Program-made: the position numbers and the translations under genes | The notes under the pieces: model-generated | Database searches by the model: none | What the model was told of the DNA's origin: nothing | What the model saw: the letters and a program-made list of their open reading frames with translations, nothing else | Origin: a virus | Length of the DNA stretch: 64,000 bases | Virus record (IMG/VR): IMGVR_UViG_3300046698_000515 | Span: 9,566-73,565 of that record | Strand: one strand, 5' to 3' | In this document: piece after piece, positions 1,843-32,412 of the stretch | How positions within the stretch are numbered: the stretch's first letter is position 1 | How the letters are laid out: the number at the start of each line of letters is the position of its first letter

Positions 1843-1848
1843 TATTTT

Positions 1849-2706
1849 ATGCGCACTCGTCGAGAAGAATCTGCAAATTATTCCTCTGTATTTATCAATG
1901 GCAAAACGCTTAGGTTTTGCATTGATCAAAGTAAACCAATTACAGAATTAAAATTTCCGGAATTTTACGATGTGTCGTGCGGCAATAAATGTGAGACTGG
2001 AAAATGCTGTTACTGTTATGCTAGTGGAAATCCAAAAGGAACACATTATAACAATGTTGTTGAAAAAATAAAAACATATTTTGGTAAAATGTCTCTCAAT
2101 GAGCGACCTTATCAAGTTGCAATTGGTGGTCAACAAGAGCCTATTGAACATCCAGAATTTGAAAATGTATTAAAAGCTTTTTGTGAATTAGATATTGTTC
2201 CAAATATCACTACTAATGGAGTATTAGTTGATCAATCTATAGTTGACATCATTAAGAAATACTGTGGTGGTGTTGCAGTCACCCTACATCCACATCTTGA
2301 AGAACACTGGCGAAGAGCAATAAACATGTTCGTTCAAAACAACATTCGAACCAATATTCATATAATCGTATCAAACAATGAAACAATTGAAGCATTGAAG
2401 CGGATATACGCAGAGCTTAATGATAAAATTGAGTATTATGTGTTGCTTCCGTATAAACCAGTTGGCTATGCTAAAAATAAACCGATTGCGATTGACTATG
2501 ATAAATTAGAAGAATTTTTAGATTTGAATTTTAATAATGCAAATATTGCATTAGGGGCTAACTTCTATGAATTTTTGACTAATAAGAGGAAGTGGAATGT
2601 GTCATTATACCCACCTGAAATTATGTCTAAGTATTTGGTGCTTGATGATAATTTGAGTTTGTATAATAATAGTTTTGACATGAAATTAGTGACAGGAAAT
2701 ATATGA
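1849..2706 (+). CDS. radical SAM enzyme
   Basis: FPEFYDV then CGNKCETGKCCYCYA (expanded CxxxCxxC), IGGQQEP, TTNG motifs. Confidence 0.85.
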   Translation: MRTRREESANYSSVFINGKTLRFCIDQSKPITELKFPEFYDVSCGNKCETGKCCYCYASGNPKGTHYNNVVEKIKTYFGKMSLNERPYQVAIGGQQEPIEHPEFENVLKAFCELDIVPNITTNGVLVDQSIVDIIKKYCGGVAVTLHPHLEEHWRRAINMFVQNNIRTNIHIIVSNNETIEALKRIYAELNDKIEYYVLLPYKPVGYAKNKPIAIDYDKLEEFLDLNFNNANIALGANFYEFLTNKRKWNVSLYPPEIMSKYLVLDDNLSLYNNSFDMKLVTGNI

Positions 2707-18395: not shown

Positions 18396-18469
18396 GCAGC
18401 ATTAATTTAGTGGTAAAATTTCTAACTACCAATTAGAGTTCATCAGTCCAATTCTGATATGCTGCTCCA
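18396..18469 (+). tRNA. tRNA-Gly(ACC)
   Basis: GCAGCAT/ATGCTGC acceptor, TCTAA-CT ACC AA-TTAGA, TCCA end. Confidence 0.75.
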
Positions 18470-18559
18470 ATTTTAAATAGAGCTTGATTTTTAATATAAA
18501 GCCTATATAATGTATTTGTAATTAAGATTTACTTACGTTTAGTTTTGTCAAAGATGAAA

Positions 18560-18720
18560 TGTAAGTGAAACAGAACCGCGCAATGCGGTTGAGGGGTGGG
18601 AAACAGAGAGGCGCAGAAGGAAAGCGGAGAGGTAGGAGAGGAAAGTAAGTGGTTTGCGGCTTAGGTCGTTTGTTGTTTACCAGACTCGAGGAAAAGTCCT
18701 CGCCAAGAAAAAGCCGCGTT
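18560..18720 (+). ncRNA. purine/GGA-rich structured RNA
   Basis: Stems AACCGC/GCGGTT, GCGGCTT/AAGCCGC, CGAGGA/TCCTCG; upstream TTGATT-16-TATAAT. Confidence 0.45.
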
Positions 18721-18727
18721 AATTTAT

Positions 18728-18821
18728 TCCAGTATTAGACCATTAAGGAGATAGGACAGCCTGTAGAGCTGCCGTGCTTTGTGCACCAGGGGGGGGTTCG
18801 ATATTCCCTCATGCGGGACCA
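18728..18821 (+). tRNA. tRNA-Tyr(GTA), divergent
   Basis: CAGC-CT GTA GA-GCTG, long variable arm, GTTCG, ACCA. Confidence 0.6.
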
Positions 18822-18975
18822 TTTTGTGTTATTGATTGAGTGTTCATCAAATCAGTTACCTTGACAGGTGTTAACGGTTCAATTCCCTAGCTGCTGGTGC
18901 AGGTTAATGTCTGTCAGAAATTTTTAGAGTTGCTTTTAATCTTAAAAGAAGCTATATTATATTTGTTCTTTGAAT

Positions 18976-19222
18976 TTCTCAGCAGCATTAGTGCTGGTGA
19001 GGTTGAGCCTGGAGACGAAAGCATCGTTGATGTAACTCTAAGTTTGCTGGTTGGTAAGTTTTCAAAGGTACATCAGGTTGTAACATTAGATAAAAGATGA
19101 AAATACCAGCTAAGTACTTGACGTAACGTCAAGCTTGACGTTTAGGTCGCGTTCAATGCGACCTGTTCGGTTAAGGGTAGGACAAAGGTGCACATAAAAC
19201 CTACCAATACCTGCAATTTTGA
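18976..19222 (+). ncRNA. unassigned structured RNA
   Basis: Hairpins CTTGACG-TAA-CGTCAAG, AGGTCGCG..TGCGACCT, GGTAGG/CCTACC, GCTGGT/ACCAGC; preceded by boxA-like TGTTCTTTGAA. Confidence 0.5.
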
Positions 19223-19237
19223 GTTTGTTCTTTGAAT

Positions 19238-19644
19238 GGGCCTGAAATGATTCGATTGTTTGTGTTAAGTTAATAATTATATGTCGAAGATGATCCTTGG
19301 CTTCGTAAAAAATGGGTCAAAACTAAATGCTAACAAAATTAGCCAAGCACGTGCATTAGCAACTCTCGCAGTTGATCGCGCATTTGCTCGAGTTCCAGCA
19401 ATGGCTTAAGGCTGTTGTCTTGAACATTGTTAACCAGTGTTGCTGTCTGTCATATTGGATTAACATCGTTTACAGACTGGTTACTGTTAGTTGTGCCGAA
19501 ACAGTAATAAGATTAAGCACAAGATTGTGAGCAGAGACGTGCTGGTACGGATGTTCATAACGACGTAGTGAAATAACCAGATAAACATATACAAGTTGTT
19601 AAAGTGATCAAACAAAACTCGGCTCGATGCCGACAGGTCCACCA
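19238..19644 (+). ncRNA. ssrA: tmRNA
   Basis: 5' GGGCCTG..GATTCGA, 3' T-arm and CAGGTCCACCA; tag ANKISQARALATLAVDRAFARVPAMA* at 19329-19409. Confidence 0.9.
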
Positions 19645-19651
19645 ATTTTAT

Positions 19652-19829
19652 GCCCGGTTACCTCAGCGGTTGGTAAATTAAGTATCCGAACACTTTGCAA
19701 ATGTGATACTAGTTAGAGAGTAGCAGAGTTAGTAAGAGAAAGATTTACTCGAGGCGAAAGTAATTAAATGCGCGCGAGAGGGCCTAGCAATAGCTAGAAA
19801 GTTGATAATTCGAGTCCATCACTGGGTAT
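19652..19829 (+). ncRNA. tRNA-like RNA with large central insertion
   Basis: GCCCGGT/ACTGGGT acceptor-like pair, D-like start, TTCGAGT T-loop, about 110 extra nt. Confidence 0.45.
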
Positions 19830-19839
19830 CCTAATTTAT

Positions 19840-19925
19840 ACGTTGGTGGCTCGACAAGTAAGGCAACGGTCTCCAAAACCGTACACGATAATTCGTATAT
19901 GTAGGTGCAATACCTATCCAACGTG
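19840..19925 (+). tRNA. tRNA-Trp(CCA) with long variable arm
   Basis: ACGGT-CT CCA AA-ACCGT; V-arm ACGA-TAAT-TCGT. Confidence 0.75.
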
Positions 19926-20182
19926 CAGAATTTCTTTTTTGCTTGCTTTTTCTGAAATGTATAATACAATATACAAGTTATCTTTTCAGGCGCTGTGGTT
20001 GTTACTATCCAAGAAATGTAACTGGTGGAGACGGTGAACGAAGAACTCGTTCCCTCCCGCAAATGAGTTACAGTTTTCCAAGCTGTGGCTCATTTGTGTT
20101 TAAATAATTTGGTCACTACCAGTGGTAGATGGCTCTAAAAAGGTTCCTCGGTACCAGCCTGGCGAAACCGAGTTAATTTATC

Positions 20183-20259
20183 GGGTTATGTGGCAACAAA
20201 GGTGTTGCACTTGCTTTGCACGCAAGTTAAAAGCTAGGGTGCGTTACCCTCATGATCCA
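20183..20259 (+). tRNA. tRNA-Ala(TGC)
   Basis: CTTGC-TT TGC AC-GCAAG; G3:U70. Confidence 0.7.
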
Positions 20260-20266
20260 CATTTTA

Positions 20267-20342
20267 TCGCTCAATCGTCTAAAATCTAGGACGCAGTCCC
20301 TTGGGACTGAAATGCCAAGGTGAAGTCTGGCGCGAGCGACCA
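20267..20342 (+). tRNA. degenerate tRNA (anticodon unclear)
   Basis: TCGTCTAA..AGGACG D-arm, CAGTC/GACTG stem with 6-nt loop, CCA. Confidence 0.4.
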
Positions 20343-20377
20343 ATTTATAAAACCATATTGTGATTAAATAATTACAT

Positions 20378-20572
20378 ATGCCTATAATTCCTATTGTTGT
20401 TACTCTTATTGTTATCGGAGTTTTGCTCTGGCTTGCTAACACTTATATCCCTATGGACGAAAAGATTAAGAAAATCTTAAATGCTGTTGTAGTGATATTA
20501 GTTGTCGTTTGGTTGCTCGATGTGTTTGGAGCGTTTAGTTATGTTAATAACATTCAATGGCATCACCGATAA
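20378..20572 (+). CDS. small 2-TM membrane protein (Thivi_2564-like)
   Basis: LLWLANTYIPMDEKIKKILNAVVVI..WLL. Confidence 0.75.
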   Translation: MPIIPIVVTLIVIGVLLWLANTYIPMDEKIKKILNAVVVILVVVWLLDVFGAFSYVNNIQWHHR

Positions 20573-20615
20573 TTTTTGAGTTGCATTTTTTCGTATAAGT
20601 ATTTAAAATATTTGT

Positions 20616-21008
20616 ATGAAAAATATAGCACTTATAAAAGCTGATGAGGTGATTGAACCAGAATTAGTTGACGATAATTTTCCTCGTTCTACTCTTTTTG
20701 ATGATATTGATAAATTTACTCAACGTATATTTCATGGATTTAATAGTGGAAGCTGCTTAGAAGAAAAACAAGGTAATTTTATTCTGCAGTTTGAGATTCC
20801 TGGTTTTGATGAGAGTGAAATTGACATTACCATAGAAGGAACAACAATATTTGTTAGAGGTATTTCAAAAAATAAACAAACAGAATTTTCATATCAATTA
20901 CCTCAACCAGTTGTAATAAGCAAAGCTACTTCAATATTTAAAAATGGTATTTTAACTGTTGTTCTTCCGAAGAGTAAAATTAAGAAGCAGAGAATTTTAA
21001 TTTCATAA
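20616..21008 (+). CDS. small heat-shock protein (Hsp20)
   Basis: EIPGF..EIDI..F.YQLP..A..KNGILTVVLPK. Confidence 0.85.
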   Translation: MKNIALIKADEVIEPELVDDNFPRSTLFDDIDKFTQRIFHGFNSGSCLEEKQGNFILQFEIPGFDESEIDITIEGTTIFVRGISKNKQTEFSYQLPQPVVISKATSIFKNGILTVVLPKSKIKKQRILIS

Positions 21009-21013
21009 TTTAT

Positions 21014-21088
21014 AGCTGGCGGGGGGTTAGATCCTGGACGGGCCCATAACCCGTTTTAATCAGATGCGATTTCTGAGCGTAGCGACCA
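21014..21088 (+). tRNA. tRNA-Met(CAT), initiator-like, divergent
   Basis: ACGGG-CC CAT AA-CCCGT (3 G-C pairs), ACCA. Confidence 0.6.
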
Positions 21089-21092
21089 TTTA

Positions 21093-21167
21093 TCAGGTAC
21101 GTAGTGTAATTAGTAGCATTTTACCTTGTGACGGTAACGGTTCTGATGCGAATTCAGACTACCTGAA
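21093..21167 (+). tRNA. tRNA-His(GTG)
   Basis: TTACC-TT GTG AC-GGTAA. Confidence 0.7.
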
Positions 21168-21340
21168 GATTCTTCTTGCAAATTACATTATCATTTAATA
21201 GAATTTTACTCACAGCGGGCCTAGGAAATTATCCATGGAATAATTATACCACACGCTGATCTGTTCAGGAATGACCGGTGAGAGAATAGGTGCATGGTTG
21301 ACAATTGATGTCAATAATTCCAGCTTAAACTCTGAGTACA

Positions 21341-21440
21341 TCAGTAGCACATGAGCAAATTGTTTCGGTAGAAGTCCGACTATCCTTGAAACGTGAAGGA
21401 ATGCAAGAATAAAAAGCCTTGACCTCGAATGTGCTACTGA
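21341..21440 (+). ncRNA. unassigned structured RNA
   Basis: 12-bp terminal stem TCAGTAGCACAT/ATGTGCTACTGA. Confidence 0.45.
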
Positions 21441-21451
21441 GAATTTTTAAT

Positions 21452-21537
21452 GGTAGTGTGGCCGAAAAGGAAACTGGAAGAACTAACTAGCTTAGAACTA
21501 GATGGCCTTGGAAGTTCGACTCTTCTCACTGCTACCA
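21452..21537 (+). tRNA. tRNA-Leu(TAG)
   Basis: CTAG-CT TAG AA-CTAG; GTTCGAC; ACCA. Confidence 0.7.
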
Positions 21538-21693
21538 TTTTACTACATTAGTAAATGTAGACCGCGGCAGGTGGTAGATACTTATCTAGAGGATACCTAA
21601 CTTAGTGCACATAATTATAGCTTGATCGAGTTGCGCGAGCAATGCTAAACAGCTGGTACTTCCGAATATGTCGAAATGCTATCTGTAATTTAT

Positions 21694-21775
21694 GCTACAG
21701 TGTACGAAACCAGAATAGAAGATGGATAAATTTCAAAAATTTATGTACTTGAAGGTGCAAGTCCTTTCTGTAGTA
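21694..21775 (+). tRNA. tRNA-Leu(CAA)
   Basis: TAAAT-TT CAA AA-ATTTA; GCTACAG/CTGTAGT. Confidence 0.6.
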
Positions 21776-22448
21776 GTAATTTTTGATCAATGATAGAAAT
21801 GATAATATCTAAATATTTTTGACCGGTTGTTGGTTTAAAATATAGTTGGTGGGAAGTATCAATAATTACCAATTCAATTTCTCTTTCTAAACATGCTTGA
21901 AATTTCCTATTGTCATTATTTTGAATTTTTGAGAGTAATTCTTTTCCATGAATAGGTTCATAATGGTAAATACCATTTAATTCTACTGCTAATTTTAGAG
22001 ATGGAATATAAATATCAAGTTCTGAATTTATTGCTTCCTTTTTATTGAACAGATTTTCTAATTTTGGATATTTTTGAATTAATTGTTGTTCTATCCATTT
22101 TTCTAATTTAGATCGTCTTGTACCATGCTTTTTATGGGTATTATTATATGTTGCAGCACATGATTGTGTACAAAACATATTAGTTGTCTTTTTATGTTTA
22201 TTACGGGTTGCTGAAGCAACCACTTTAAAGAGTACATTACAATTTTTACATATACAAGATACTTGTGTTATTCTTGATTTATGCGCACATTTTCCACTAC
22301 AATATATAACATTTCTATTATTTCTTTTTGCTAAATAAATAGCATGTTTTGTTGTTTGAAAGGTTTTATTGCAGTGTGGGCAAATAGTATCTATAATTTT
22401 TTCATGATGTTTTGCAGATTTATATTGCGTTTTATTATATTTAACCAT
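21741..22448 (-). mobile_element. homing endonuclease-like (Zn fingers plus PD-(D/E)xK)
   Basis: CxxC/CSxxC repeats, ELDIYIPSLKLAVELNGIYHY; antisense in tRNA array. Confidence 0.8.
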
Positions 22449-22501
22449 ACAATTATTTAATCGAAAATAGGATTTCGAATCCGGTTTAGATAACCTATTT
22501 C

Positions 22502-22577
22502 GGGCTTGTAGACCAATAGAAGAGTCAACGGTCCTAAAAACCGTACAGTGCGGGGGCAGGACCCGCCAGGCCTACCA
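22502..22577 (+). tRNA. tRNA-Leu(TAA)
   Basis: ACGGT-CC TAA AA-ACCGT; ACCA. Confidence 0.8.
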
Positions 22578-23038
22578 TTTTAAAATTATGAGCATAAGAA
22601 CTAAAAATGATACACATCACGGATGTAAACCCGATGACTGTCATTGTGAAGAACACTGCAATGATAAGCCTTTAAGATCTCTTTTAGAACTGTTTCTCAT
22701 TGTAGGAAATATGACCCTTTGGTTCTATAATATTTTAGCTCTTGTAAATGTAATGAAACATTAAATGAAAAAGAAAACTAAATGGCCAACTTTAAAAGGT
22801 AGATTATCTCAACCATTAACTACTCGAAAAGAGGCAGTAGAGCAATTGCAAAAGTTTGGTATGCCTTTAACAGAGCTAGCAAAGAAATATTTAAAAAATG
22901 AAAAATAGTCTCCGTAAAGACGCAATAACTAAAGGTGGTTGGGGTCGAGGAATGAATAATAAATTATCACGTACTTCTAAACATAATCTTGATCGTAAAG
23001 TAGATAAGCGCAGACGGAGAGAAGGAAAAGAATTTAAT

Positions 23039-23115
23039 GACCCTATCGACTACGTTAGCTAGGTCGGAAGACCTTCAATCTTCAGGAGCGAGGGCAGCAC
23101 TCGCTAGGGTCACCA
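23039..23115 (+). tRNA. tRNA-Glu(TTC)
   Basis: GAAGA-CC TTC AA-TCTTC; ACCA. Confidence 0.75.
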
Positions 23116-23122
23116 ATTTATA

Positions 23123-23199
23123 ACCTCGTGAAGATGAAGAGTGGAATCACAGGCTTGTCACGCCTGAATAAGCAGGCGCACCTCCTGTCGCGAGGACCA
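23123..23199 (+). tRNA. tRNA-Asp(GTC)
   Basis: CAGGC-TT GTC AC-GCCTG; ACCA. Confidence 0.7.
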
Positions 23200-23216
23200 A
23201 TTTCTGACAATGTATA

Positions 23217-23287
23217 GGTAACAATCGTCTAATGGCAGGATGCCGGCGCGAAGGTCGGAGATATTGGTTCAAGTCCAGATGCTACCA
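23217..23287 (+). tRNA. degenerate tRNA
   Basis: D-arm and GGTTCAAGTCC T-arm; anticodon loop abnormal. Confidence 0.4.
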
Positions 23288-23379
23288 ACGTGATGTATAT
23301 TGTTGTGAAAATGAGTCTGTATAGTTTAGTGCATTTCACAGTGTGCTCCGCCATTGGGCTCATATTGAAGTAGTTAGTA

Positions 23380-23451
23380 AGGATTATGGTGCAATGGTCA
23401 GACACAGCGGCTCCCAAGTCGCTTGTCCAAGTTCGAGTCTTGGTAATTTTT
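23380..23451 (+). tRNA. tRNA-like gene with 8-nt anticodon loop (CTCCCAAG)
   Basis: AGCGG/TCGCT stem, CCAAG-TTCGAGT-CTTGG T-arm. Confidence 0.5.
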
Positions 23452-23473
23452 GCTAACTACGGATTTTATTTTT

Positions 23474-23548
23474 GCGGTATAGGTGTTTATAGATACATAC
23501 GAGACTTCCAATCTTGGGTAGAGGGTGTGATACCCTCACACCGCTCCA
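23474..23548 (+). tRNA. tRNA-Gly(TCC)
   Basis: CGAGA-CT TCC AA-TCTTG; TCCA. Confidence 0.8.
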
Positions 23549-23571
23549 ATTTTAGAATAAATAATAGTGTG

Positions 23572-23859
23572 ATGCCATTTAAAATTTTTTACGAAAAAAT
23601 TGAATCTTGTGCTATTAAATTAGAAGATGGAAGAATCTTTACAGGATCAGATCATGAAAGTGCAGCTGCGGAAGCTCATACAGCAGGAGTTCAATGGACT
23701 GATATTGAAAAATGTATTTGTGGTTTTATGATAGATGGAGAATTTTTTAATAGAGAACAAGCTTTTAATATTGCAATTTCAAATGGTATTCTTTGTTTGA
23801 AACAACCATGTACTCCAGGTAGATTAGATTCTTACGATTTACCACACTTACATCCGTAA
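23572..23859 (+). CDS. hypothetical phage protein
   Basis: MPFKIF..CAIK..G.DH..GFM..GEFFNREQA..LDSYDL; AATAAATA upstream; track start 23386 runs through tRNAs. Confidence 0.65.
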   Translation: MPFKIFYEKIESCAIKLEDGRIFTGSDHESAAAEAHTAGVQWTDIEKCICGFMIDGEFFNREQAFNIAISNGILCLKQPCTPGRLDSYDLPHLHP

Positions 23860-24105
23860 GCATAATATTGATTTTCATATTTTGTTTGTTATTATTTCTT
23901 TACTATGAAAGTAAATGCTAAAGCTGATTTAACTGGTAATCTTGTTGTAATTAATGATAATTGGTATTATCTTTGTAAGATTGATGAACCTAAACATTTA
24001 TCTACTAAACCATTAGTTAATTTTACTATACAGGGTACTTTTACAAAAGCTAAAAGATAAGCATAATATTGATTTCAATAAACTAGTTATTATCATGTCT
24101 AAGTT

Positions 24106-24315
24106 ATGGAAAATATAAACTTAAATATAGTTAAAGGTACACTTAACAAATTAAGTGTACTTCTTGATACACAAATTGAAAAGTATACTGCAGCAAAAAA
24201 GCCTACAAATGTAGATTTTGAAAGAATTCATAAAACACTTTCTATATATGAATCAGTTGTAGATATATATGGGAATCTTATTGGTATTGATAAAATGGGT
24301 AAGGAAGAATTGTAA
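24106..24315 (+). CDS. hypothetical protein
   Basis: ORF behind its own promoter. Confidence 0.6.
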   Translation: MENINLNIVKGTLNKLSVLLDTQIEKYTAAKKPTNVDFERIHKTLSIYESVVDIYGNLIGIDKMGKEEL

Positions 24316-24322
24316 TTTATTT

Positions 24323-24413
24323 GCCTGTTTGGCTCAGCGGCGACAGCACCATCTTTGTAAGTTGGCAGCTTTTTAATAAGCTCACGGGAGTTCAAATCTC
24401 TCAACAGGCTCCA
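24323..24413 (+). tRNA. tRNA-Thr(TGT), long variable arm
   Basis: CCATC-TT TGT AA-GTTGG; AGCTT..AAGCT V-stem; TCCA. Confidence 0.8.
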
Positions 24414-24421
24414 AATTTATT

Positions 24422-24511
24422 GCCAGTATGCCTCAGTAGCGACAGGACCTGTTTCGTAAACAGATAACATTTAAAAGTGTTCACGGAAGTGTAAATCTTT
24501 CTACTGGCTCC
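24422..24511 (+). tRNA. tRNA-Thr(CGT), long variable arm
   Basis: CTGT-TT CGT AA-ACAG; AACATT..AGTGTT V-stem. Confidence 0.75.
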
Positions 24512-25455
24512 GCTTCTATAAGTTGTTTAATACTTTCCCATGATAACTCATTTTTATTAAGAATTAAAAGTTTTTGAGAAATTAGTTTTTTAACTTTTTG
24601 TATTTTTTCTGCATCTGTTTGTTGGCAAAAATTATTTTTAGGATCAAGATATGTATTATAATCTGTTAAATAAAAATCAGGATAATATTTCTTATCAATT
24701 CCGAGATTGTTTACCCATGGTATTGGTGAGGGTCTTATCCATTTAATTTTGTTTTCGTCAAGTGATTGTGCAACTTTAAATTCCCAACTTGACTCCAACC
24801 ATACCTTACCAGCAAATGGTGAAGTATAGTAACCTGTTTTATGGTAATGGTTTTTATTTATACATAAGTAAGTTTTACCAATATTTACACGAACTAAATG
24901 CAGACATTTACCGCAATACTTTCTTTTATGTCTATGTATGAATTTAATAATTGTACCACATCCACCTTTACATAATTTTGGTTGTTTATTATATTCATTT
25001 AGTATAGTTTGTTTTCTAATCGCAGCATATTTTTGTAATTTAAGAAGTTTTTGTTTCTCCTTCTCTGGTGATAATTTTCCTGAGTATCCATTTTTATTTC
25101 GTTCTTTATTACTAAATGTTGCTGAGCATGTATGTGAACAAAAATTATGCTGTCGGATCGCATTAAGACACTTTCTAACTGATTTTTTACAAGTTGTACA
25201 AAAAATTGTTCTTGTAGTAGATGGATAAGTATATAATTTTCCACATTTACTAGAACAAAAAATAGCAGTTGTATTTTTACTTTCTTTATTTCGTTGCTTC
25301 TTTCGTCTTACTGAGCCAAGAATATTATATTTCTTTCTAGTTTGTATTTTATTACATTGTTTACATTTAAAAGGAATATTATCATTCCATTTTGAGTTAA
25401 CAAATGTTTCTTTATCAATTAATAAACAATCTAGTAGTTCTTTAGGTAAATCCAT
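24481..25455 (-). mobile_element. homing endonuclease-like (Zn fingers plus TnsA-like PD-(D/E)xK)
   Basis: FCSxxC repeats; ESSWE..YYPDFYL..YLDPK. Confidence 0.8.
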
Positions 25456-25592
25456 ATATTAATTATTTAATGAAACATAGTCGCAATAACAAGGTGCGGC
25501 TCCTATAATAAAATTTGATACGGCTTCCTTAATCAAGAAGGTGGAAATAAAGCCGGAATGAGCGTACACTCCTGAGCCCTCAAATAAATTTT

Positions 25593-25665
25593 GCCTCTGT
25601 AATTCAAAGATAGAATATTGCTTTGGTAAAGCAAAAACGTTTGGGATTGTTACCCACCTGAGGCT
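25593..25665 (+). tRNA. tRNA-Thr(GGT)
   Basis: TTGCT-TT GGT AA-AGCAA. Confidence 0.7.
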
Positions 25666-25674
25666 CACTTTAAT

Positions 25675-25765
25675 GGCTAGTAAACTTAACAAGGTTAAGG
25701 GTTGTCTGCTAAACAACGCGCTCACCTAAGACGTGGGTCAGAGGCAGGATCTGTGCTAGCCGCCA
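25675..25765 (+). tRNA. tRNA-Ser(GCT)
   Basis: GTTGT-CT GCT AA-ACAAC; long V-arm; GCCA. Confidence 0.75.
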
Positions 25766-25806
25766 TTTTTTATTGAAATAAAAACATATTCTAATATAAT
25801 GTATCC

Positions 25807-26349
25807 ATGTTAGCATTTCATGGAACATCAATTCAAAATGCAGAATCTATTTGGAAAAATGGATTTGATATTAATGCTCCAAAAAATTGGCAATTGTCAC
25901 CTAGTAATAAAATATTTTGCCTTTTAGATACAGGTGGTTCAGAATCTTTCCAATATACTTTAACACAAGCTACTCTTTCAGCTTTTCGTGAGATTGATAT
26001 TGTAAAACGTGCTGTTATTGTTATTGATATTACTGGAATAAAATATGCTCCTGATTCAACAAATACTATGCCAAAACATATGACCTCGATTGAAATGAAG
26101 CATATTCCACATAATAGGGTAAAAGCAGTTTTTGCTGATGTAAATAATTTAGTCCAATATAAGTTATTATTTTACTTTCAAGTTGTTAGTAAAAATTTAA
26201 AAACAACGCTTAATATTAGTTTAACGGAAGATGAAATTAAAGAGACATCATGTAAAATGGAAACAGGCCAATGTATTTTTACAGATATTGAAAAGATTTA
26301 TAGTAGAAATATTTTTTATAAATTACCGCAAGCCAAATATTATTTATAA
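25807..26349 (+). CDS. ADP-ribosyltransferase-like protein
   Basis: N-terminal FHGTS..A.SI...GF motif. Confidence 0.5.
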   Translation: MLAFHGTSIQNAESIWKNGFDINAPKNWQLSPSNKIFCLLDTGGSESFQYTLTQATLSAFREIDIVKRAVIVIDITGIKYAPDSTNTMPKHMTSIEMKHIPHNRVKAVFADVNNLVQYKLLFYFQVVSKNLKTTLNISLTEDEIKETSCKMETGQCIFTDIEKIYSRNIFYKLPQAKYYL

Positions 26350-26358
26350 ACAAATTTT

Positions 26359-26446
26359 GGAGGTAGTCCGGCATGGACGAGGACGCGATCCTGAAAATCG
26401 TCGCTGGTAAAAACAGTCGGGAGTTCGATTCTCTCTGCCTCCGCCA
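26359..26446 (+). tRNA. tRNA-Ser(TGA)
   Basis: GCGAT-CC TGA AA-ATCGT; GTTCGAT; GCCA. Confidence 0.85.
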
Positions 26447-26492
26447 ATTTTACTTGATTATAATGAAATGTATTATATCATATTTTCTGAAC

Positions 26493-26581
26493 TGCAGGGA
26501 CAAGCCGTGTGATGCTAACTGCGCTCATAACGCAGGAGATTAATTTCTCTATGAATAGTTAGACTCTATTCTCTGCAACCA
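26493..26581 (+). tRNA. tRNA-Met(CAT), long variable arm
   Basis: CTGCG-CT CAT AA-CGCAG; GAGA..TCTC V-stem; ACCA. Confidence 0.65.
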
Positions 26582-26587
26582 ATTTCT

Positions 26588-26679
26588 GGACCTATGATGT
26601 AATGTAGCATTGCTAGTTTTATAAACTAGGCGCAGTAGATTTCTGCCAAGTTTTGGTTCAAGTCCAAATGGGTCTACCA
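26588..26679 (+). tRNA. tRNA-Ile(TAT), long variable arm
   Basis: CTAGT-TT TAT AA-ACTAG; GCAG..CTGC V-stem; GGTTCAAGTCC; ACCA. Confidence 0.75.
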
Positions 26680-26687
26680 ATTTTCAT

Positions 26688-26765
26688 CCCACAGTAATTC
26701 ATTATTAGTAGAATATCGTCCTGATAAGGCGAAAGTGATTGGGGCAGAGCCAATCTGTGGGACCA
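26688..26765 (+). tRNA. tRNA-Ile(GAT)
   Basis: TCGTC-CT GAT AA-GGCGA; ACCA. Confidence 0.8.
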
Positions 26766-26810
26766 ATTTTTGTTCTTGCAATTAATCTTGTTTGTGCTTA
26801 TTATATTGAC

Positions 26811-27047
26811 ATGAAAAATTTCTTTATCTGTGGCCGTAAAAATTTTAAAGGTTATGAAGTAGCCTTAAGTGGCAACAACGTAATCATTTGGATTACTGGT
26901 GAAGAATCTCCTGAACGAGTCAAAGAAATAACCACCGCAGTTTTACTCTATCTCGAAAATGAAGGATTTGGAGATTTAAGCCGAATGAAAGTTCGGGTAG
27001 AGCTGAAAGAGTTTGGCGAGAGTGGGGGTATTTTAGTTCCTGCATAA
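26811..27047 (+). CDS. hypothetical protein
   Basis: MKNFFICG.. start after promoter-like sequence. Confidence 0.55.
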   Translation: MKNFFICGRKNFKGYEVALSGNNVIIWITGEESPERVKEITTAVLLYLENEGFGDLSRMKVRVELKEFGESGGILVPA

Positions 27048-27058
27048 TAATTTCAAAT

Positions 27059-27132
27059 GGGCTGCAAGCTTTAAATTGAAGCAAAAAGCTTTTAACTTTT
27101 TGAACTTGGGGAAGTACCAAGGCGGCTCACCA
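27059..27132 (+). tRNA. tRNA-Lys(TTT)
   Basis: AAAAG-CT TTT AA-CTTTT; ACCA. Confidence 0.75.
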
Positions 27133-27144
27133 TTCCATTTTTAT

Positions 27145-27218
27145 TCCAGAGTAGCTCAACTGGTAGTAGCAGATCATTGTTAATGATCAGATTGCTGGAT
27201 CGTACCCAGCCTCTGGAG
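27145..27218 (+). tRNA. tRNA-Asn(GTT)
   Basis: TAGCTCAA; GATCA-TT GTT AA-TGATC. Confidence 0.85.
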
Positions 27219-27219
27219 C

Positions 27220-27293
27220 GGACCACAAGTATTAAAGTGATACAGCAGACTCTTAACCTGCAAAACACGGGGTAGTACCGTGGTGGTTCACCA
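27220..27293 (+). tRNA. tRNA-Lys(CTT)
   Basis: GCAG.-CT CTT AA-.CTGC; ACCA. Confidence 0.75.
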
Positions 27294-27298
27294 AATTT

Positions 27299-27369
27299 AC
27301 CTGCATAGTATAAAAGTATTACCAACGGTTTTGGCCCGTAAGAAGTAGGGGCAGTACCTACTGCAGGCG
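27299..27369 (+). tRNA. tRNA-Gln(TTG)
   Basis: ACGG-TT TTG GC-CCGT. Confidence 0.65.
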
Positions 27370-27381
27370 CGTTTTCTTAAT

Positions 27382-27453
27382 GCCAGTATCAAGAAGTCTT
27401 GAGCATGATTTCATATGTCATTGCGCGATTTGGAGCATTACCATCTGCTGGCA
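27382..27453 (+). tRNA. tRNA(CAT), Met or Ile2, shortened D-arm
   Basis: ATGAT-TT CAT AT-GTCAT; GCCAGTA/TGCTGGC. Confidence 0.5.
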
Positions 27454-27508
27454 CTAATTTTATCAGAAATCATTTGCATTTTATATTAGGTAATAAGAAA
27501 ATGAAAAT

Positions 27509-27787
27509 ATGAACGATGAAAACGAGTCTCCTAAAAGTGCATTAAGAATTTTTCTTGATGAAATAATTGATTCAAACAATGAGTTCATACACACAGAACT
27601 TGAAACATTACAAAAAACAATTTTAAACTTTTTATGTACTAGTAAAGGAGTGATTAGAGAACACGATCGTCGGAAGATGATCTTAACAGTTAATCAAATA
27701 ACAAAACTTGAAAAGCTTCAGCAATACATTTACAATTCACTTCTGATTTATGAAGGTCAAGGAGTTGTGGGAATGTTAGAAAGATAA
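27509..27787 (+). CDS. hypothetical protein
   Basis: ORF between tRNAs. Confidence 0.6.
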   Translation: MNDENESPKSALRIFLDEIIDSNNEFIHTELETLQKTILNFLCTSKGVIREHDRRKMILTVNQITKLEKLQQYIYNSLLIYEGQGVVGMLER

Positions 27788-27789
27788 AT

Positions 27790-28008
27790 ATGGATAATCC
27801 TAAAATTACAGTTCATAAAGGTGAAAAGAATCATTTTTTAAGGGTTCATCTTGATGCAGAACCTAGCGGGATGTTACGATTTGAATCTGAACATGCATAT
27901 ACTAAACCTGAAGCTGATTTTAGAGCAGTTATGCTTTCATCTCGATATGGTTTTGATAGGGATGAGTTACCAACACATCTGATAATCGAAGTATATCCAA
28001 AAGTATAA
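27790..28008 (+). CDS. hypothetical protein
   Basis: ORF between tRNAs. Confidence 0.55.
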   Translation: MDNPKITVHKGEKNHFLRVHLDAEPSGMLRFESEHAYTKPEADFRAVMLSSRYGFDRDELPTHLIIEVYPKV

Positions 28009-28014
28009 TTTAAT

Positions 28015-28088
28015 GGGAGAGTAGTTTAAAGGTAGAACATGAATCCTACAAATTCGAGACGATGGATCGTTACCATTCTTTCCCACCA
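28015..28088 (+). tRNA. tRNA-Val(TAC)
   Basis: TGAAT-CC TAC AA-ATTCG; ACCA. Confidence 0.75.
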
Positions 28089-28094
28089 TTTTAA

Positions 28095-28170
28095 CCCAAT
28101 CAAACTAACCTAGTGGAAGTGCATACCCGAAGAGTATGAAGGTCTGGAGCATAACCAGAGATTGGGACCA
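28095..28170 (+). tRNA. tRNA-Phe(GAA)
   Basis: CATAC-CC GAA GA-GTATG; ACCA. Confidence 0.75.
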
Positions 28171-28174
28171 TTTT

Positions 28175-28248
28175 GTTCTATTCGTCTAAAAGTAGGATAT
28201 TAACCTCTCAAGTTAAAAACACCAGTGCGATACTGGTATAGAACACCA
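28175..28248 (+). tRNA. tRNA-Glu(CTC)
   Basis: TTAAC-CT CTC AA-GTTAA; ACCA. Confidence 0.75.
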
Positions 28249-28295
28249 TATTTTAATATTGATTTTAACTTAAAATATATTATACTTTATCTATA

Positions 28296-28676
28296 ATGGA
28301 TTTATTCAAAAGTTCAGGTAAGTTAGAATATCGTAATGAAGGATGGGTAACTCTCATACCTTCTTCATCTATTGGTAGATACTATAGATGGTGGGTTGAA
28401 AAAACAATTCATCAAAAAACCAACGTTCCAATGAAAGGCTGGCATATTACTGTTGTTGCTGGAAAGTATGAAGATTGCAGTTTACATCCAGCATGGAAAA
28501 AACATGAAAATGAAATAATTGAATTTGAATATGATCATAATGTAGTTGATGATTTTACTTCTTATTGGCTTACTATTTACTCAAGACGACTTGAAGAGAT
28601 CAGATTAGAGTTAGGATTGTATCCTTTTCCAAAATTTCCGTTTCATTTAACGGTTGCAAATCTGAAGAATCTATAA
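28296..28676 (+). CDS. 2H phosphoesterase-like protein
   Basis: Two HxT motifs: WHITVV and FHLTVA. Confidence 0.65.
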   Translation: MDLFKSSGKLEYRNEGWVTLIPSSSIGRYYRWWVEKTIHQKTNVPMKGWHITVVAGKYEDCSLHPAWKKHENEIIEFEYDHNVVDDFTSYWLTIYSRRLEEIRLELGLYPFPKFPFHLTVANLKNL

Positions 28677-28685
28677 ATAATATTA

Positions 28686-28757
28686 CGGAATGTAGCCTAA
28701 CAGTGAGGCCCTAGTTTTGGGAACTAGTACAAGTGGGGGCAGCACCCACCATTCCGA
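28686..28757 (+). tRNA. tRNA-Pro(TGG)
   Basis: CTAGT-TT TGG GA-ACTAG; TATAAATA at 28672-28679. Confidence 0.8.
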
Positions 28758-28771
28758 CACAATTTCGAATT

Positions 28772-28846
28772 GCTCTCAAAGTGTAATGGATTATGCACAA
28801 CTGTCTACGGAACAGGAGGTTCTAGATTCGAATTCTGGTGGGAGCA
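28772..28846 (+). tRNA. tRNA-Arg(ACG)
   Basis: CTGT-CT ACG GA-ACAG; TTCGAAT. Confidence 0.8.
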
Positions 28847-28854
28847 CACTTTAA

Positions 28855-28932
28855 GCTAGTGGATCGAGTAAGTAAACGAACCCGTCTGCAAAACGGTAAA
28901 AATAGTGGGAGCATTACCCACCTCTAGCTCCA
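28855..28932 (+). tRNA. tRNA-Cys(GCA)
   Basis: CCGT-CT GCA AA-ACGG; TCCA. Confidence 0.75.
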
Positions 28933-29092
28933 ATTTTTCTTCTTGCAATCAATCAAAAATTAGTTTATATTTAAAATAATATGAAAGCAGTAATTCAACA
29001 AAAAATTGAAGAATTAGTAACAATAGTTAGAGATCAATCACCTATGAAGTAGAAATGGGATTACCAAATGCATGTGATTGCAAGGATTATTT

Positions 29093-29314
29093 ATGTACAC
29101 AGAAATAAATTTTAAAACTAAAAAACAACTTAAAGAAGCAGTTATACAAGGAGAAGAAATTCGTGTATATCAACCTAATGATGTATTTGATAGTCCTCAA
29201 GCAAAATCAAATTATTCTGGCCGTGCAGCTGTTGAAGGTCCTCATTATCCTGAAGCACATCGTTGGTATGCTTCAGTTGAAATTAAAAATGGATTAGTTG
29301 TCAAAGTAAAGTAG
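29093..29314 (+). CDS. hypothetical phage protein
   Basis: MY..NFKTKKQLKEAV..EGPHYP..H.WYA. Confidence 0.7.
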   Translation: MYTEINFKTKKQLKEAVIQGEEIRVYQPNDVFDSPQAKSNYSGRAAVEGPHYPEAHRWYASVEIKNGLVVKVK

Positions 29315-29372
29315 AAAATTTCTCAAGACAACCGATTGATTTTCTTTCAGAAGACTCAATAATATCATTACT

Positions 29373-29936
29373 ATGAAATTCAAAATCTTAGGTATATTAT
29401 CGGCTGCAGTGCTTATCATAGCACTTGCAGGTCTCACTACAAGTACTACAGGTTGCAAAACAATTACAAACCTTATAGGTACAAACACAACTCAGATTCA
29501 ATCTGATGTAATGTCGGCAGCTACACAAGCTACAACTTATGCTCTTAACCAAGATGCAAAATCACGTATTTATTTTGTTGCAGCGACTGATGTATTGGGT
29601 TCGTTTGTAAATTCAACAAATTCAAACCCAGCAAGTATTGCGGCTGCTCTAGCTGCATTACCTATTAGTCAATTGCAATCACCTGAAGCTCAATTAGCAA
29701 TTACTGCAATTTTAGGAGTATATGATATAACATATGCATCTTATGTACAGAATGCAGTTGATCAAAATGGTATGGCTAATGCTGTACTAAATGGATTAGT
29801 CCAAGGTATAAATGCTGGTTTAGCAGCAGTTCCAGCTCCTGTTGCATCTGCAAGCACAATTGCAAGTTTAACCAATTTAAAATCACCATACATGATTATT
29901 AAACCTGGTTTAGTTCCTCAACAAAAGAAGAAGTAA
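29373..29936 (+). CDS. lipoprotein
   Basis: Signal peptide then TTG-C; Ala-rich helical body. Confidence 0.75.
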   Translation: MKFKILGILSAAVLIIALAGLTTSTTGCKTITNLIGTNTTQIQSDVMSAATQATTYALNQDAKSRIYFVAATDVLGSFVNSTNSNPASIAAALAALPISQLQSPEAQLAITAILGVYDITYASYVQNAVDQNGMANAVLNGLVQGINAGLAAVPAPVASASTIASLTNLKSPYMIIKPGLVPQQKKK

Positions 29937-29954
29937 ATTATTTTAAAAATCAAT

Positions 29955-29984
29955 AGCCTATGGTGAAAGCCATAGGCTTTTTTT
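29955..29984 (+). terminator. intrinsic terminator
   Basis: AGCCTATGG-TGAAAG-CCATAGGCT-T run. Confidence 0.85.
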
Positions 29985-30059
29985 GTGCTAGTATTAGTGC
30001 CCTCTCCTAAAGGGTAAACGTATAAATTGGATAATGTAGGTTCGAGCCCTAGCACACCA
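29985..30059 (+). tRNA. degenerate tRNA-Arg(CCT)
   Basis: GCCCT-CT CCT AA-AGGGT; GGTTCGAG; ACCA; D-arm missing. Confidence 0.45.
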
Positions 30060-30067
30060 TTCTAAAT

Positions 30068-30141
30068 AGCCTAATGGCGCAAAACGGTAACGCAACTCGC
30101 TCTGAACGAGAAGATTAAAGGTTCGAATCCTTTTTAGGCTG
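30068..30141 (+). tRNA. tRNA-Gln(CTG)
   Basis: CTCG-CT CTG AA-CGAG; GGTTCGAATCC. Confidence 0.85.
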
Positions 30142-30326
30142 CACATTTTCATATCCATGTAATGGTACTTCTCGTCCCTTCATATAATCTCTTCTAGAAA
30201 GCTTCAACCATTCTTCATACCATTTCTCTTCCCAAAATTTCTTAGCACTAAAATCAAATTCTAACTGTTGGCTGTGCATGTAGATATTTATTGATTTTTA
30301 TCTATTCACCTATTATATTTAATATA

Positions 30327-30784: not shown

Positions 30785-31063
30785 ATGAAGAAAAATGTTG
30801 ACTATAATTTATTAGTACAAGCTGAACGTATTAGATATCAGTCAGATTTTTCTTCTGCTCATTGGTTACATCAAGTCATATCAGATTATGAGCGAGGTAT
30901 TGAAGTTAAAATACGACGCGAAGCATTTGAAAGTGTTCTTCGAACAGCAATTAATTTAGGTTGTAAAGCAGCGATAAAACTTGCAAATACATTTCCAGTA
31001 TATGCAGGATTTCCACAATATTTAAAACTATCAAATCAAGGCTGGAAAAAACTGCTCAAATGA
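30785..31063 (+). CDS. hypothetical protein
   Basis: 92-aa ORF. Confidence 0.55.
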   Translation: MKKNVDYNLLVQAERIRYQSDFSSAHWLHQVISDYERGIEVKIRREAFESVLRTAINLGCKAAIKLANTFPVYAGFPQYLKLSNQGWKKLLK

Positions 31064-31128
31064 TCTTGAATGATTTTGACAAACACACACTGAATCGTTT
31101 TCGATATGCACGAGAAGGTGATTAATTT

Positions 31129-31384
31129 AACAAATAAAATAAGTGATTCTTCGCTGTAGAAATATAGAGGAAGCTATGACTGCACAGCAGATGTTTGGGA
31201 GACGTAAGTCGTTAATACCACAAATTAGCAGCAATCCTAAGAAGTCTGAGTGTAGTGTTGCACGTTTGAGGACAAAGTTGGAGCAGCAATTCATAAAGAG
31301 TTGCCTATCGTGAGATAGAGATAAATGAAGAATACTTGAAGAAATTCAAGAACAGAATCATAGCTATAGCTTATTTTATTTGTT
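31129..31384 (+). ncRNA. rnpB: RNase P RNA-like ribozyme (compact, 256 nt)
   Basis: P1 AACAAATAAAATAAG/CTTATTTTATTTGTT; P2 ATTCTTC/GAAGAAT; P3 CTGTA-GAAA-TATAG; GAGGA then P4 AGCTATGA pairing with TCATAGCT after ACAGAA; P5 CTGC/GCAG-CAA; AGATAAAT before the P2 3' strand. Confidence 0.8.
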
Positions 31385-31459
31385 GTTAGACAAAAAATAA
31401 AAATACCTTGTTCTTTTATTGAGTTTTTTAAAATTTAATATATAATGATCTTTAATAAT

Positions 31460-31693
31460 ATGATAAATCGAAATGATAAATTAGCTAATCAACCTTATAA
31501 TATAAACATCTTAAAAGCAACAATTCACTGGTTGTATGAACAAGTTAAACATACTGAAAAAGCGTTGAAAATAACACAAAGACAAAATAATACTAGAGGA
31601 ACTAATTTTAATTTAAAACGGATGAATGAGCTTGCTAATCGGATACTTCATACTGATCATGAAATGGTAGAGCACGGACTCATTTGTGCATAA
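31460..31693 (+). CDS. hypothetical protein
   Basis: Short ORF. Confidence 0.5.
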   Translation: MINRNDKLANQPYNINILKATIHWLYEQVKHTEKALKITQRQNNTRGTNFNLKRMNELANRILHTDHEMVEHGLICA

Positions 31694-31698
31694 TTAAA

Positions 31699-32412
31699 AT
31701 GCAACATGTAACCAATATTTTACGGCAGAGAATTACTCTAAATGTTAATTCTAATTGGCGTCCTCTTGGTTATATGATGGTACGAAGTGCATTTACTGCA
31801 CTTAATGGTGGTGCTGATACATTTGGTGTAACAGGACAACCACCTGCTAGAGCATTCATTATTGATTATGGTAAAGATGAAGAAGGGTTTTATGATTTCG
31901 ATCAATTAATTGAATGTCGTCCTATTGATTGGAGCGAATGGATAAAACAACCTATTCGGGGACATGATTCTGTAGTACATACTTCAAAACTTGAAATTAG
32001 GGTACCTACAGTTATTATGTCAGTAAACATGAATGAAGATCCAGTTATTAAAAAAGGTCGGCCTACAAATCGAGATATTTTAATACGTGATGGATATGTA
32101 TGTCAATATACTAATAAAAAATATCCTCCATCTCAATTAACTGTTGATCATGTTATTTCAAAAGATGAATGGAGACGTAGAGGACTTCCAGGAAGTCCTG
32201 ATACATGGGAAAATATGGTTGCTTGTTATAAGCCTTTAAATCATGAAAAAAGTAATAAAACTTTAGCAGAGATGGGATTAAAATTAATTCGTAAACCAAA
32301 AGCTCCTCCGGCTGTTAGATTGTCTGAACTTATCCGTGAGATAAGACACCAGGATTGGAAACATTTCTTTGAAAAATATCAAGATATGAAAGTTAATATT
32401 GGTAATGAATAA
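31699..32412 (+). CDS. HNH endonuclease (McrA-like family)
   Basis: LNVNSNWRPL, RVPTVI, ILIRDGYVCQY, LTVDHV, TWENMVAC..N..K. Confidence 0.85.
   Translation: MQHVTNILRQRITLNVNSNWRPLGYMMVRSAFTALNGGADTFGVTGQPPARAFIIDYGKDEEGFYDFDQLIECRPIDWSEWIKQPIRGHDSVVHTSKLEIRVPTVIMSVNMNEDPVIKKGRPTNRDILIRDGYVCQYTNKKYPPSQLTVDHVISKDEWRRRGLPGSPDTWENMVACYKPLNHEKSNKTLAEMGLKLIRKPKAPPAVRLSELIREIRHQDWKHFFEKYQDMKVNIGNE

Follow-up and report, generated by a model that had tools for sequence, protein, structure and literature searches.

We analysed a 64,000-nt stretch of viral DNA (positions 9,566 to 73,565 of IMG/VR record IMGVR_UViG_3300046698_000515, hereafter the window) and concentrated on a 256-nt segment at positions 31129-31384 of its + strand. 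An earlier interpretation made from the letters alone (the sequence-only reading) had taken this segment for a compact, phage-encoded RNase P-like RNA. The virus record has a length of 73.5 kb, is estimated to be 34% complete and shows a GC content of ~30%; the RNA is present once in the record. The phage-type genes of the window include a T4 Gp20-type portal gene with an intein, a baseplate spike protein, a ribonucleotide reductase and a fusion of endonuclease VII with dCMP deaminase. Judged by its Gp20-type portal, baseplate and ribonucleotide reductase genes and by its IMG/VR record, the carrier is a T4-like phage. Ten tRNA genes and a transfer-messenger RNA (tmRNA) form an island at 18396-30142 on the same strand as the RNA. 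The segment lies at the end of this island, as had been proposed, with 986 nt between it and the end of the closest upstream tRNA on the same strand. We argue that the segment probably encodes a miniaturised RNase P RNA descended from the bacterial type A, which would serve the phage in accessory pre-tRNA processing.

The landmarks and the pairings P1 to P5 named in the sequence-only reading were all recovered at their positions (Table 1). We added P2, whose strands form 7/7 pairs; P2 crosses P4 and thus gives the RNA the pseudoknot topology of RNase P. The stack of P1, P2 and P3 with the long-range P4 pseudoknot crossing P2 is present in the window RNA. Conserved regions I, IV and V (J3/4, J18/2, and J2/4 followed by the P4 3' strand) occur in this order in the window and are invariant in the family described below. 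When the window copy was mapped on the family consensus, 14/14 pairs of P1, 8/8 of P4 and 4/4 of P5 were formed. The minimum free energy (MFE) of the + strand was -77.7 kcal/mol compared to -49.2 ± 4.2 for 200 dinucleotide shuffles (z -6.75, 0/200 as good), and for the minus strand we obtained z -3.0. The pattern of three landmarks at this spacing was encountered once in the window and in 0/100 shuffles. A pairing of RNA positions 66-72 with 107-113 in the middle of the MFE structure was rejected as a mispairing, as the family consensus has 107-111/150-154, which is P15. At the position of the extra hairpin (31335-31350) an insert of at least 20 nt was observed in 7/32 complete family members (the window copy, L203, L196, L216, L233, L225 and L209). 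We take this to be the place that P19 occupies in some bacterial RNase P RNAs.

Table 1. Elements of the 256-nt RNA in window coordinates and in RNA numbering (RNA position 1 = window position 31129)
Element	Window positions	Strand	RNA positions	Remarks
P1 5' strand	31129..31144	+	1-16	pairs with 31369-31384, 16-bp closing helix; 13/14 consensus pairs compensatory across the family
P2 5' strand AUUCUUC	31146..31152	+	18-24	pairs with 31327-31333; crosses P4
P3 hairpin, GAAA loop	31154..31167	+	26-39	5/5 pairs in the window; 5/6 pairs covary in the family
J3/4 GAGGA (conserved region I)	31167..31171	+	39-43	family-invariant; aligned to RF00010 GAGGAA in L178
P4 5' strand AGCUAUGA	31172..31179	+	44-51	8 nt vs 9 nt including bulgeable U in 30/32
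P5 and vestigial specificity domain	31180..31231	+	P5 CUGC/GCAG 52-55/100-103	P5 31180-31183 with 31228-31231; inner helix 31194-31198 with 31218-31222; hairpin 31201-31210, GUAA loop
J5/15 CAA	31232..31234	+	104-106	family-invariant; aligned to RF00010 GCAA
P15 and P16/17-like arm inside	31235..31282	+		31235-31239 with 31278-31282, 4/5 pairs; covaries in the family; aligned to RF00010 CGGGU in L178
Variable hairpin between P15 and P18	31286..31304	+		in some members, not in L182
P18-like hairpin, GUGA (GNRA) loop	31305..31318	+		from the helix table
J18/2 AGAUAAAUG (conserved region IV)	31319..31327	+	191-199 (AGAUAAAU 191-198)	invariant; last G is the start of the P2 3' strand; aligned to RF00010 AGAugAAUG
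P2 3' strand GAAGAAU	31327..31333	+	199-205	pairs with 31146-31152
Extra GAAA-capped hairpin between P2 3' strand and J2/4	31335..31350	+		from the helix table
J2/4 ACAGAA (conserved region V)	31352..31357	+	224-229	aligned to RF00010 ACAGAA
P4 3' strand UCAUAGCU	31358..31365	+	230-237	pairs with 31172-31179
P1 3' strand	31369..31384	+	241-256	pairs with 31129-31144

Relatives were collected by pattern searches combined with covariance models. When all viral contigs were scanned for the three landmarks at the short spacing of the mini form, at least 116 stretches were returned, with 80 loci among the matches listed. R1, a covariance model for which the window sequence was the only input, gave four full-length matches of 30-82 bits on these 80 loci and at most 11 bits on all others. 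Tighter patterns derived from the conserved blocks matched 13 and 15 stretches in viral contigs, 65 in metagenome contigs and 15 in species-representative cellular genomes; this pre-filter recovers only members with exact 3' motifs. For a second model (R2) we used seven relatives and excluded the window copy, L178 and L182. This model places the window RNA precisely at 31129-31384 with 78.3 bits (E 5e-21, model positions 1-245, full length), and the other two held-out members with 131.6 bits (L178) and 121.8 bits (L182), against a background of at most 9 bits. On the 65 metagenome stretches it detected 42 significant matches. After removal of duplicates the viral and metagenome contigs yielded 34 distinct sequences, 32 of them complete and between 211 and 342 nt long, which have P1, P3, P5, P15 and the P2/P4 pseudoknot in common. 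The mini RNase P RNA family is widespread on phage and metagenome contigs, often in or beside tRNA gene arrays. In 4/34 members a tRNA of the same strand lies no more than 20 nt away, and L214 is abutted on both sides.

Not every candidate could be kept. L169, L170, L176 and L177 are coding-like or chance matches, and R1 and R2 were silent at the pattern site. L088, L194 and L202 were rejected as full members: their 3' half is family-like from P15 to the P4 3' strand and the P2 and P4 5' strands do not match. These degenerate copies lie at L088:6724-6893 (+), on a 482-kb viral contig, at L194:10278-10513 (-) and at L202:1788-1976 (-), and they may be truncated, chimeric or decayed. L194 and L202 were excluded from the P2, P4 and tree counts, and alignment A9 omits L179 (large insertion) and L181 (5' end cut by the locus). 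L179:17-341 (-), on a 173-kb record estimated to be 100% complete, carries a ~150-nt insertion in the vestigial specificity domain; AGAGGAAG is replaced by ACAGGAAG, P4 contains an A-C mismatch, and the 3' strand of P2 is followed by a hairpin. The only mini form of the R2 type in the cellular-genome scan was L249:5557-5802 (-), with 130.8 bits; its 546-kb contig had been assigned to a Bacteriovoracaceae metagenome-assembled genome. Metagenome locus L191, on a contig of ~546 kb, has the identical R2 score, and the L249 contig may be a huge phage that was binned with a bacterium.

The helices are supported by covariation. For a structure-blind MAFFT alignment of seven members RNAalifold returned P1, P3, P4 with its bulge, P5 and P15, with compensatory changes in 26/56 pairs, and the helix table on the same alignment adds P2 and the inner helix. 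In the 34-sequence alignment 94.7% of the cells are paired compared to 65.6% after shuffling and at most 44% with slid partners, and double changes were observed in 38/49 pairs; this alignment was fitted to the covariance model and so leans towards it. P2 offers a separate view, as it is part of neither R1 nor R2; the invariant AGAUAAAUG served to fix the position of its 3' strand. All seven pairs form in 25/32 members and at least six in 30/32, with 27 distinct strand combinations. When the strands were matched with the wrong partners, the average was 3.7 pairs and 3% reached 7/7.

The connection to RNase P RNA comes from matches of eight members to Rfam models, which fall at the family coordinates. 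RF00010 (bacterial type A RNase P RNA) matched L225 (72.8 bits, E 2.8e-20), L203 (68.1 bits, E 1.1e-18), L223 (57.9 bits, E 3e-15), L178 (52.0 bits, E 3.4e-15, model positions 1-367), L189 (50.7 bits, E 8.4e-13) and L217 (34.5 bits, E 2.6e-07). L229 matched RF00011 (37.7 bits, E 6.2e-07) and L179 the archaeal RNase P model RF00373 (28.6 bits, E 2.1e-06). These eight members are GC-richer. The RF00010 consensus strands matched are GAGGAA, GCAA, CGGGU, AGAugAAUG and ACAGAA...GGCU. In the alignment of L178 they correspond one for one to GAGGAAG-U-UCGGGAC, GCAA, CGGGU, AGAUAAAUG and ACAGAAUCCCGGCUAC, and 30 nt stand in place of the 110 specificity-domain model positions. As a control we placed the 3' signature of the family on cellular genomes, where it lands on authentic full-length RNase P genes of bacterial metagenome-assembled genomes, with scores above gathering (249.8, 237 and 126 bits). 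The proposal of a phage-encoded, compact RNA derived from RNase P is thus strongly supported, though through relatives only, namely by the R2 match and by the Rfam matches of the relatives. Sequence comparison demonstrates both the membership of the window RNA in this family and its descent from RNase P RNA.

The most conspicuous peculiarity of the window copy is found in P4. All 8/8 pairs of AGCUAUGA/UCAUAGCU are Watson-Crick pairs and the bulge column is empty, so the earlier description of a perfectly paired P4 without the bulged U was accurate. A bulgeable U is found in 30/32 complete members (9-nt 5' strand and 8-nt 3' strand), for example in AG-U-UCAGGA/UCCUGG-CU and, in four members, AGC-U-CAGGA. 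The pairs of this helix covary (CAGG/CCUG, CAUC/GAUG, CGCC/GGCG and CGGG/CCCG). We rejected an apparent bulged C in L188, L182, L195 and L214, as an equally good register gives a C-G pair followed by a bulged U. Among the 32, only the window copy and L216 (AGUUGUGA/UCACAGCU) have the fully paired 8+8 form. The question of whether the loss of the bulge is conserved therefore has two answers: it is not family-wide, and it is common to the window copy and L216. These two group as sisters in a quick maximum-likelihood tree (local support 0.86); L233 and L196, the remaining members of the enclosing clade (support 0.94), have retained the bulge. The two sequences are 64% identical over the aligned columns and differ by a compensatory A-U/G-C change inside P4. 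The missing U is not an artefact of assembly in all likelihood: a contig of run X3, which comes from another sample and another study, spans 31092-31499 without a single difference or gap, and a contig of run X4 spans 30947-31179, including the P4 5' strand, again without a difference. The identity in X3 and the sharing with L216 at 64% identity with a compensatory change indicate that the loss is real and maintained. It probably goes back to a single event, and its pattern suggests that the bulge-less state is under selection in these two sequences.

The same two sequences share a change in L15. The G-G-U of L15 in RNase P RNA pairs with the 3' CCA of the tRNA. The window has AAAG on the 3' side of L15 (31274-31277), where most relatives have GGG, and shares with L216 the variant CAAAGUUGGAGCA, i.e. 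CAAAGU compared to CGGGU in most relatives and in RF00010. CCA is encoded in 4/10 Rfam-called tRNA genes of the window, so there is no simple explanation for the change on the side of the tRNAs. The CCA-binding motif of L15 is called UGG in excerpts of PMC8172020. For the P4 uridine, excerpts of PMC3488217 describe a strictly conserved nucleotide that contacts the catalytic metal M1 through its O4 ligand. According to the same source, U52C of T. maritima retains ~0.08 of the wild-type efficiency and deletion of the uridine in an archaeal holoenzyme results in a 13-fold loss; the authors regard the bulged uridine as 'not irreplaceable' (PMC3488217). By analogy, the window and L216 RNAs would be slower enzymes rather than dead ones.

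For the role of the RNA the sequence-only reading had considered either a ribozyme for atypical tRNAs of the phage or a decoy for host RnpA; nothing in our results points to a special enzyme being required by these tRNAs. Our own proposal is as follows. The catalytic domain would be kept whole, with P1, P2, P3, the P2/P4 pseudoknot, P5, P15 with its internal loop, the P18-like GNRA hairpin and the strands J3/4, J5/15, J18/2 and J2/4. The RNA would be transcribed together with the tRNA/tmRNA island, borrow the RnpA protein of the host and cleave the 5' leaders of the phage's own pre-tRNAs, which would provide extra processing capacity in infection. Catalysis, protein partner, substrates and expression of the window RNA are what we infer. 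The catalytic domain alone is reported to be catalytic at reduced efficiency (excerpts of PMC5839562), and the window lineage may best be read as a weakened or compensated variant of an accessory RNase P RNA that lacks the specificity domain. A bolder version holds that phages carry a natural RNase P consisting of the catalytic domain only, which matures their tRNA arrays with a host protein or with none, and that the RNAs of the window and L216 work without the P4 uridine. We offer this version tentatively and with some doubt.

Several results weigh against our proposal, in addition to the lean of the 34-sequence alignment towards its model. The whole window gave no RNase P match at gathering in Rfam 15, positions 30900-31600 gave none at E<=10, and RF00010 did not match anywhere in the record (controls positive in 11/14 genomes). 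No member reaches the gathering score (100 bits for RF00010); the missing specificity domain accounts for scores that are significant and still below gathering. In one Rfam check 14/20 loci and in another 4/4 showed no RNase P match. The specificity domain (P7-P14 with conserved regions II/III), which binds the tRNA T-loop, is not found in the window RNA: there are ~45 nt between the P5 strands, and P10-P12 are gone. The universally conserved bulged U is absent, and together with the altered L15 this means that two functional motifs are changed in the window copy. A same-strand tRNA within 1 kb was observed for only 11/34 members, and 16 loci, many of them very short, are without any tRNA. RnpA (PF00825) was not found in 5/5 carrier records, one of which is estimated to be complete (controls positive in 10/14), and any protein partner would thus be that of the host. 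R1 and R2 gave no match in the five nearest portal-related records, which is a weak sign of absence as this clade offers no positive control. A scan for promoters gave no signal better than in shuffles, and no terminator was detected. The single RNA run (X8) covers 31495-31600, which is the downstream open reading frame (ORF) only and lies outside the RNA locus.

The Rfam negatives have to be seen together with the family model. The sequence-only reading had named the lack of a covariance-model hit as evidence against itself. For the window sequence there is indeed no Rfam match, whereas R2, built without the window copy, scores it with 78.3 bits. Taken literally the test thus went against the RNA, yet it proves too strict, as R2 finds the window copy and eight other members match RNase P models significantly. 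Other searches with the window sequence returned little. RF02357 gave no match in the whole record at E<=10, a weak negative as the controls matched in eight genomes and never exceeded the cut-off. We detected no DNA similarity in the phage collection (blastn with 351 nt, megablast with 8 kb), no relatives with the flanking small ORFs as anchors, and 0 matches in viral contigs to a pattern with the exact sequence of P4. When the RNA was compared with the five portal-related records by BLAST, only AT-rich scraps were returned (E 0.01 or worse), and a Portal_T4 search in the other carriers found no match, with the controls likewise giving none.

There are several other possible explanations for the segment. 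It could be a mimic of RNase P rather than an enzyme, which sequesters host RnpA or pre-tRNA and so redirects or throttles the tRNA processing of the host for the phage. The failure to find RnpA in the phage records agrees with this, as the partner must then come from the host, and so do the missing bulged U and the altered L15 of the window copy and L216 in RNAs whose helices and strands are kept under selection. However, in 30/32 members a bulgeable U is retained alongside the invariant strands J3/4, J5/15, J18/2 and J2/4, and a pure protein decoy would not need such active-site elements. Furthermore several members sit directly between same-strand tRNA genes, which fits a processing role, and the published mutants without the uridine retain activity (PMC3488217). 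We therefore consider a mimic unlikely. It is more improbable still that the window copy is a decaying relic, made functionless by the loss of the bulge and the change in L15. Two functional motifs are altered in it, degenerate or 5'-truncated copies exist elsewhere (L088, L194, L202) and the portal relatives are without a copy. Against decay, the helices are all intact, L216, at 64% identity, retains both the L15 variant and the bulge-less P4 (with a compensatory change), the sequence is identical in an independent sample, and the fold z-score given above is not expected from drift.

A sequencing or assembly error, with a U in the real RNA, has very little to recommend it. A one-base deletion would yield exactly this P4 helix, but X3 is identical across the whole RNA, X4 agrees through the P4 5' strand, and an 8+8 P4 is also present in L216, whose sequence differs and stems from another assembly; X3 and X4 are contigs and not raw reads, so rare variants remain possible. 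That the segment codes for a small protein (ORF 31143-31313, 56 aa from GTG or 45 aa from ATG, with GAGGA just upstream of the ATG at 31176) and is structured only incidentally is hardly credible, as the longest ATG-ORF has at most 28 aa in 28/34 distinct members and the frame is not conserved, the substitutions track base-pairing and not codons, and the GAGGA is the invariant J3/4 strand. We thus return to a miniaturised RNase P RNA as the preferred reading.

Some features of the surroundings deserve mention. The tmRNA lies inside the island at 19238-19644 (+) (RF00023, 84.2 bits, full length), and together with ~10 tRNAs and the mini RNase P RNA it makes up a sizeable translation-RNA module. 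For the tRNA at 23379-23453 (+), which overlaps the start of ORF 23386-23859, ARAGORN reports a four-base anticodon (ccca) with identity undetermined and Rfam gives a tRNA score of 36.1 bits; it could be a tRNA of the frameshift-suppressor type or a miscall. Three tRNA calls of 88-92 nt at 24323-24511 and 26588-26679 (+), labelled Thr, Thr and Ile, are unusually long for these identities. Long variable arms, introns or wrongly assigned anticodons could account for this, and these three may be the 'atypical tRNAs' of which the sequence-only reading spoke. Intein splicing domains are present in the ribonucleotide reductase, 11604-13463 (+), and in the T4-type portal gene, 59433-61931 (+). ORF 31684-32412 (+), 242 aa, just downstream of the RNA, had no Pfam match at E<=0.001; by eye we take a histidine/asparagine motif near its C-terminal third to be HNH-like. 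Two relatives have similarly crowded surroundings. The mini RNase P RNA at L214:1234-1507 (+) directly adjoins tRNA genes at 1159-1233 upstream and 1507-1578 downstream, so that its ends could be cut by tRNA-processing enzymes, possibly by itself. In L192 the mini RNase P RNA (401-644) has a GOLLD-like large RNA beside it at 1485-1979 (+) (RF02032, 134.6 bits compared to a gathering score of 150), in which a tRNA is nested at 1557-1629; here two large structured RNAs stand side by side in one tRNA array.

RNase P RNA is generally treated as a universal housekeeping ribozyme of the cell. We found no prior description of a phage-encoded RNase P RNA in the open full-text literature, a scope outside which subscription journals and supplements lie. 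A survey of huge phages covers phage tRNAs, tmRNAs, synthetases and ribosomal proteins, and nowhere in it does 'RNase P' or 'ribonuclease P' occur (PMC7162821). The family of phage mini RNase P RNAs is thus apparently undescribed. A phage-borne family would add the processing of tRNA 5' ends to the translation functions carried by viruses. As the curated models miss the family at threshold, its RNAs go unannotated in viral genomes, which a family model combined with the 3' signature would fix. The family would also provide a natural set of minimal RNase P RNAs, 211-342 nt long and nearly devoid of a specificity domain, from which the requirements of the catalytic core could be learned. The window copy and L216 are an experiment of nature on a nucleotide for which strict conservation and binding to the catalytic metal have been described (PMC3488217). 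If the enzyme works without this uridine, the catalytic metal can be held in another way, and the smallest natural RNase P of bacterial type would be smaller and more plastic than the textbook consensus.

We conclude by comparing the RNA to known systems. With bacterial type A RNase P RNA (RF00010) it shares the order of the helices, the P2/P4 pseudoknot, the conserved strands, the P15 internal loop and the P18-type GNRA hairpin. It differs in its size, with 256 nt in the window compared to 367 model positions and with 110 positions of specificity domain reduced to ~30-45 nt in the family. Furthermore it is phage-borne and not a cellular housekeeping gene, scores below the gathering threshold of 100 bits and, in the window copy, lacks the P4 bulge. 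Type T RNase P RNA (Thermoproteaceae, Pyrobaculum; RF02357) has likewise lost most of the specificity domain naturally, and it reportedly escaped model-based detection for a long time. Type T belongs to an archaeal lineage with archaeal proteins, whereas the phage family aligns to the bacterial model. Loss of P12 is known only from Pyrobaculum-type RNAs and M. fermentans according to excerpts of PMC8172020, where it is called highly unusual. The RNase P RNAs of the Candidate Phyla Radiation (CPR) and of Mycoplasma resemble the phage RNAs in that lowered covariance-model thresholds are needed and peripheral helices are missing, and among the diverged CPR RNAs the CCA-binding motif is missing in 23/35 (PMC8172020). 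The Patescibacteria rnpB found with the 3' signature of our family scored 126 bits. In CPR and Mycoplasma, however, the RNA is the only RNase P of the cell and most of the specificity domain is kept, whereas the phage RNAs would be accessory and have almost none. Engineered RNase P RNAs that consist of the catalytic domain only are equally without a specificity domain and are the laboratory parallel to a possible mode of action of the phage RNA (PMC5839562); those are artificial deletions, whereas the phage family is natural and evolutionarily maintained. Finally, in the P4 uridine mutants the O4 ligand for metal M1 is missing, which must be true of the window copy as well (PMC3488217). They are laboratory mutants with ~13-fold losses (PMC3488217), whereas here the change is natural and has been inherited by two diverged sequences.

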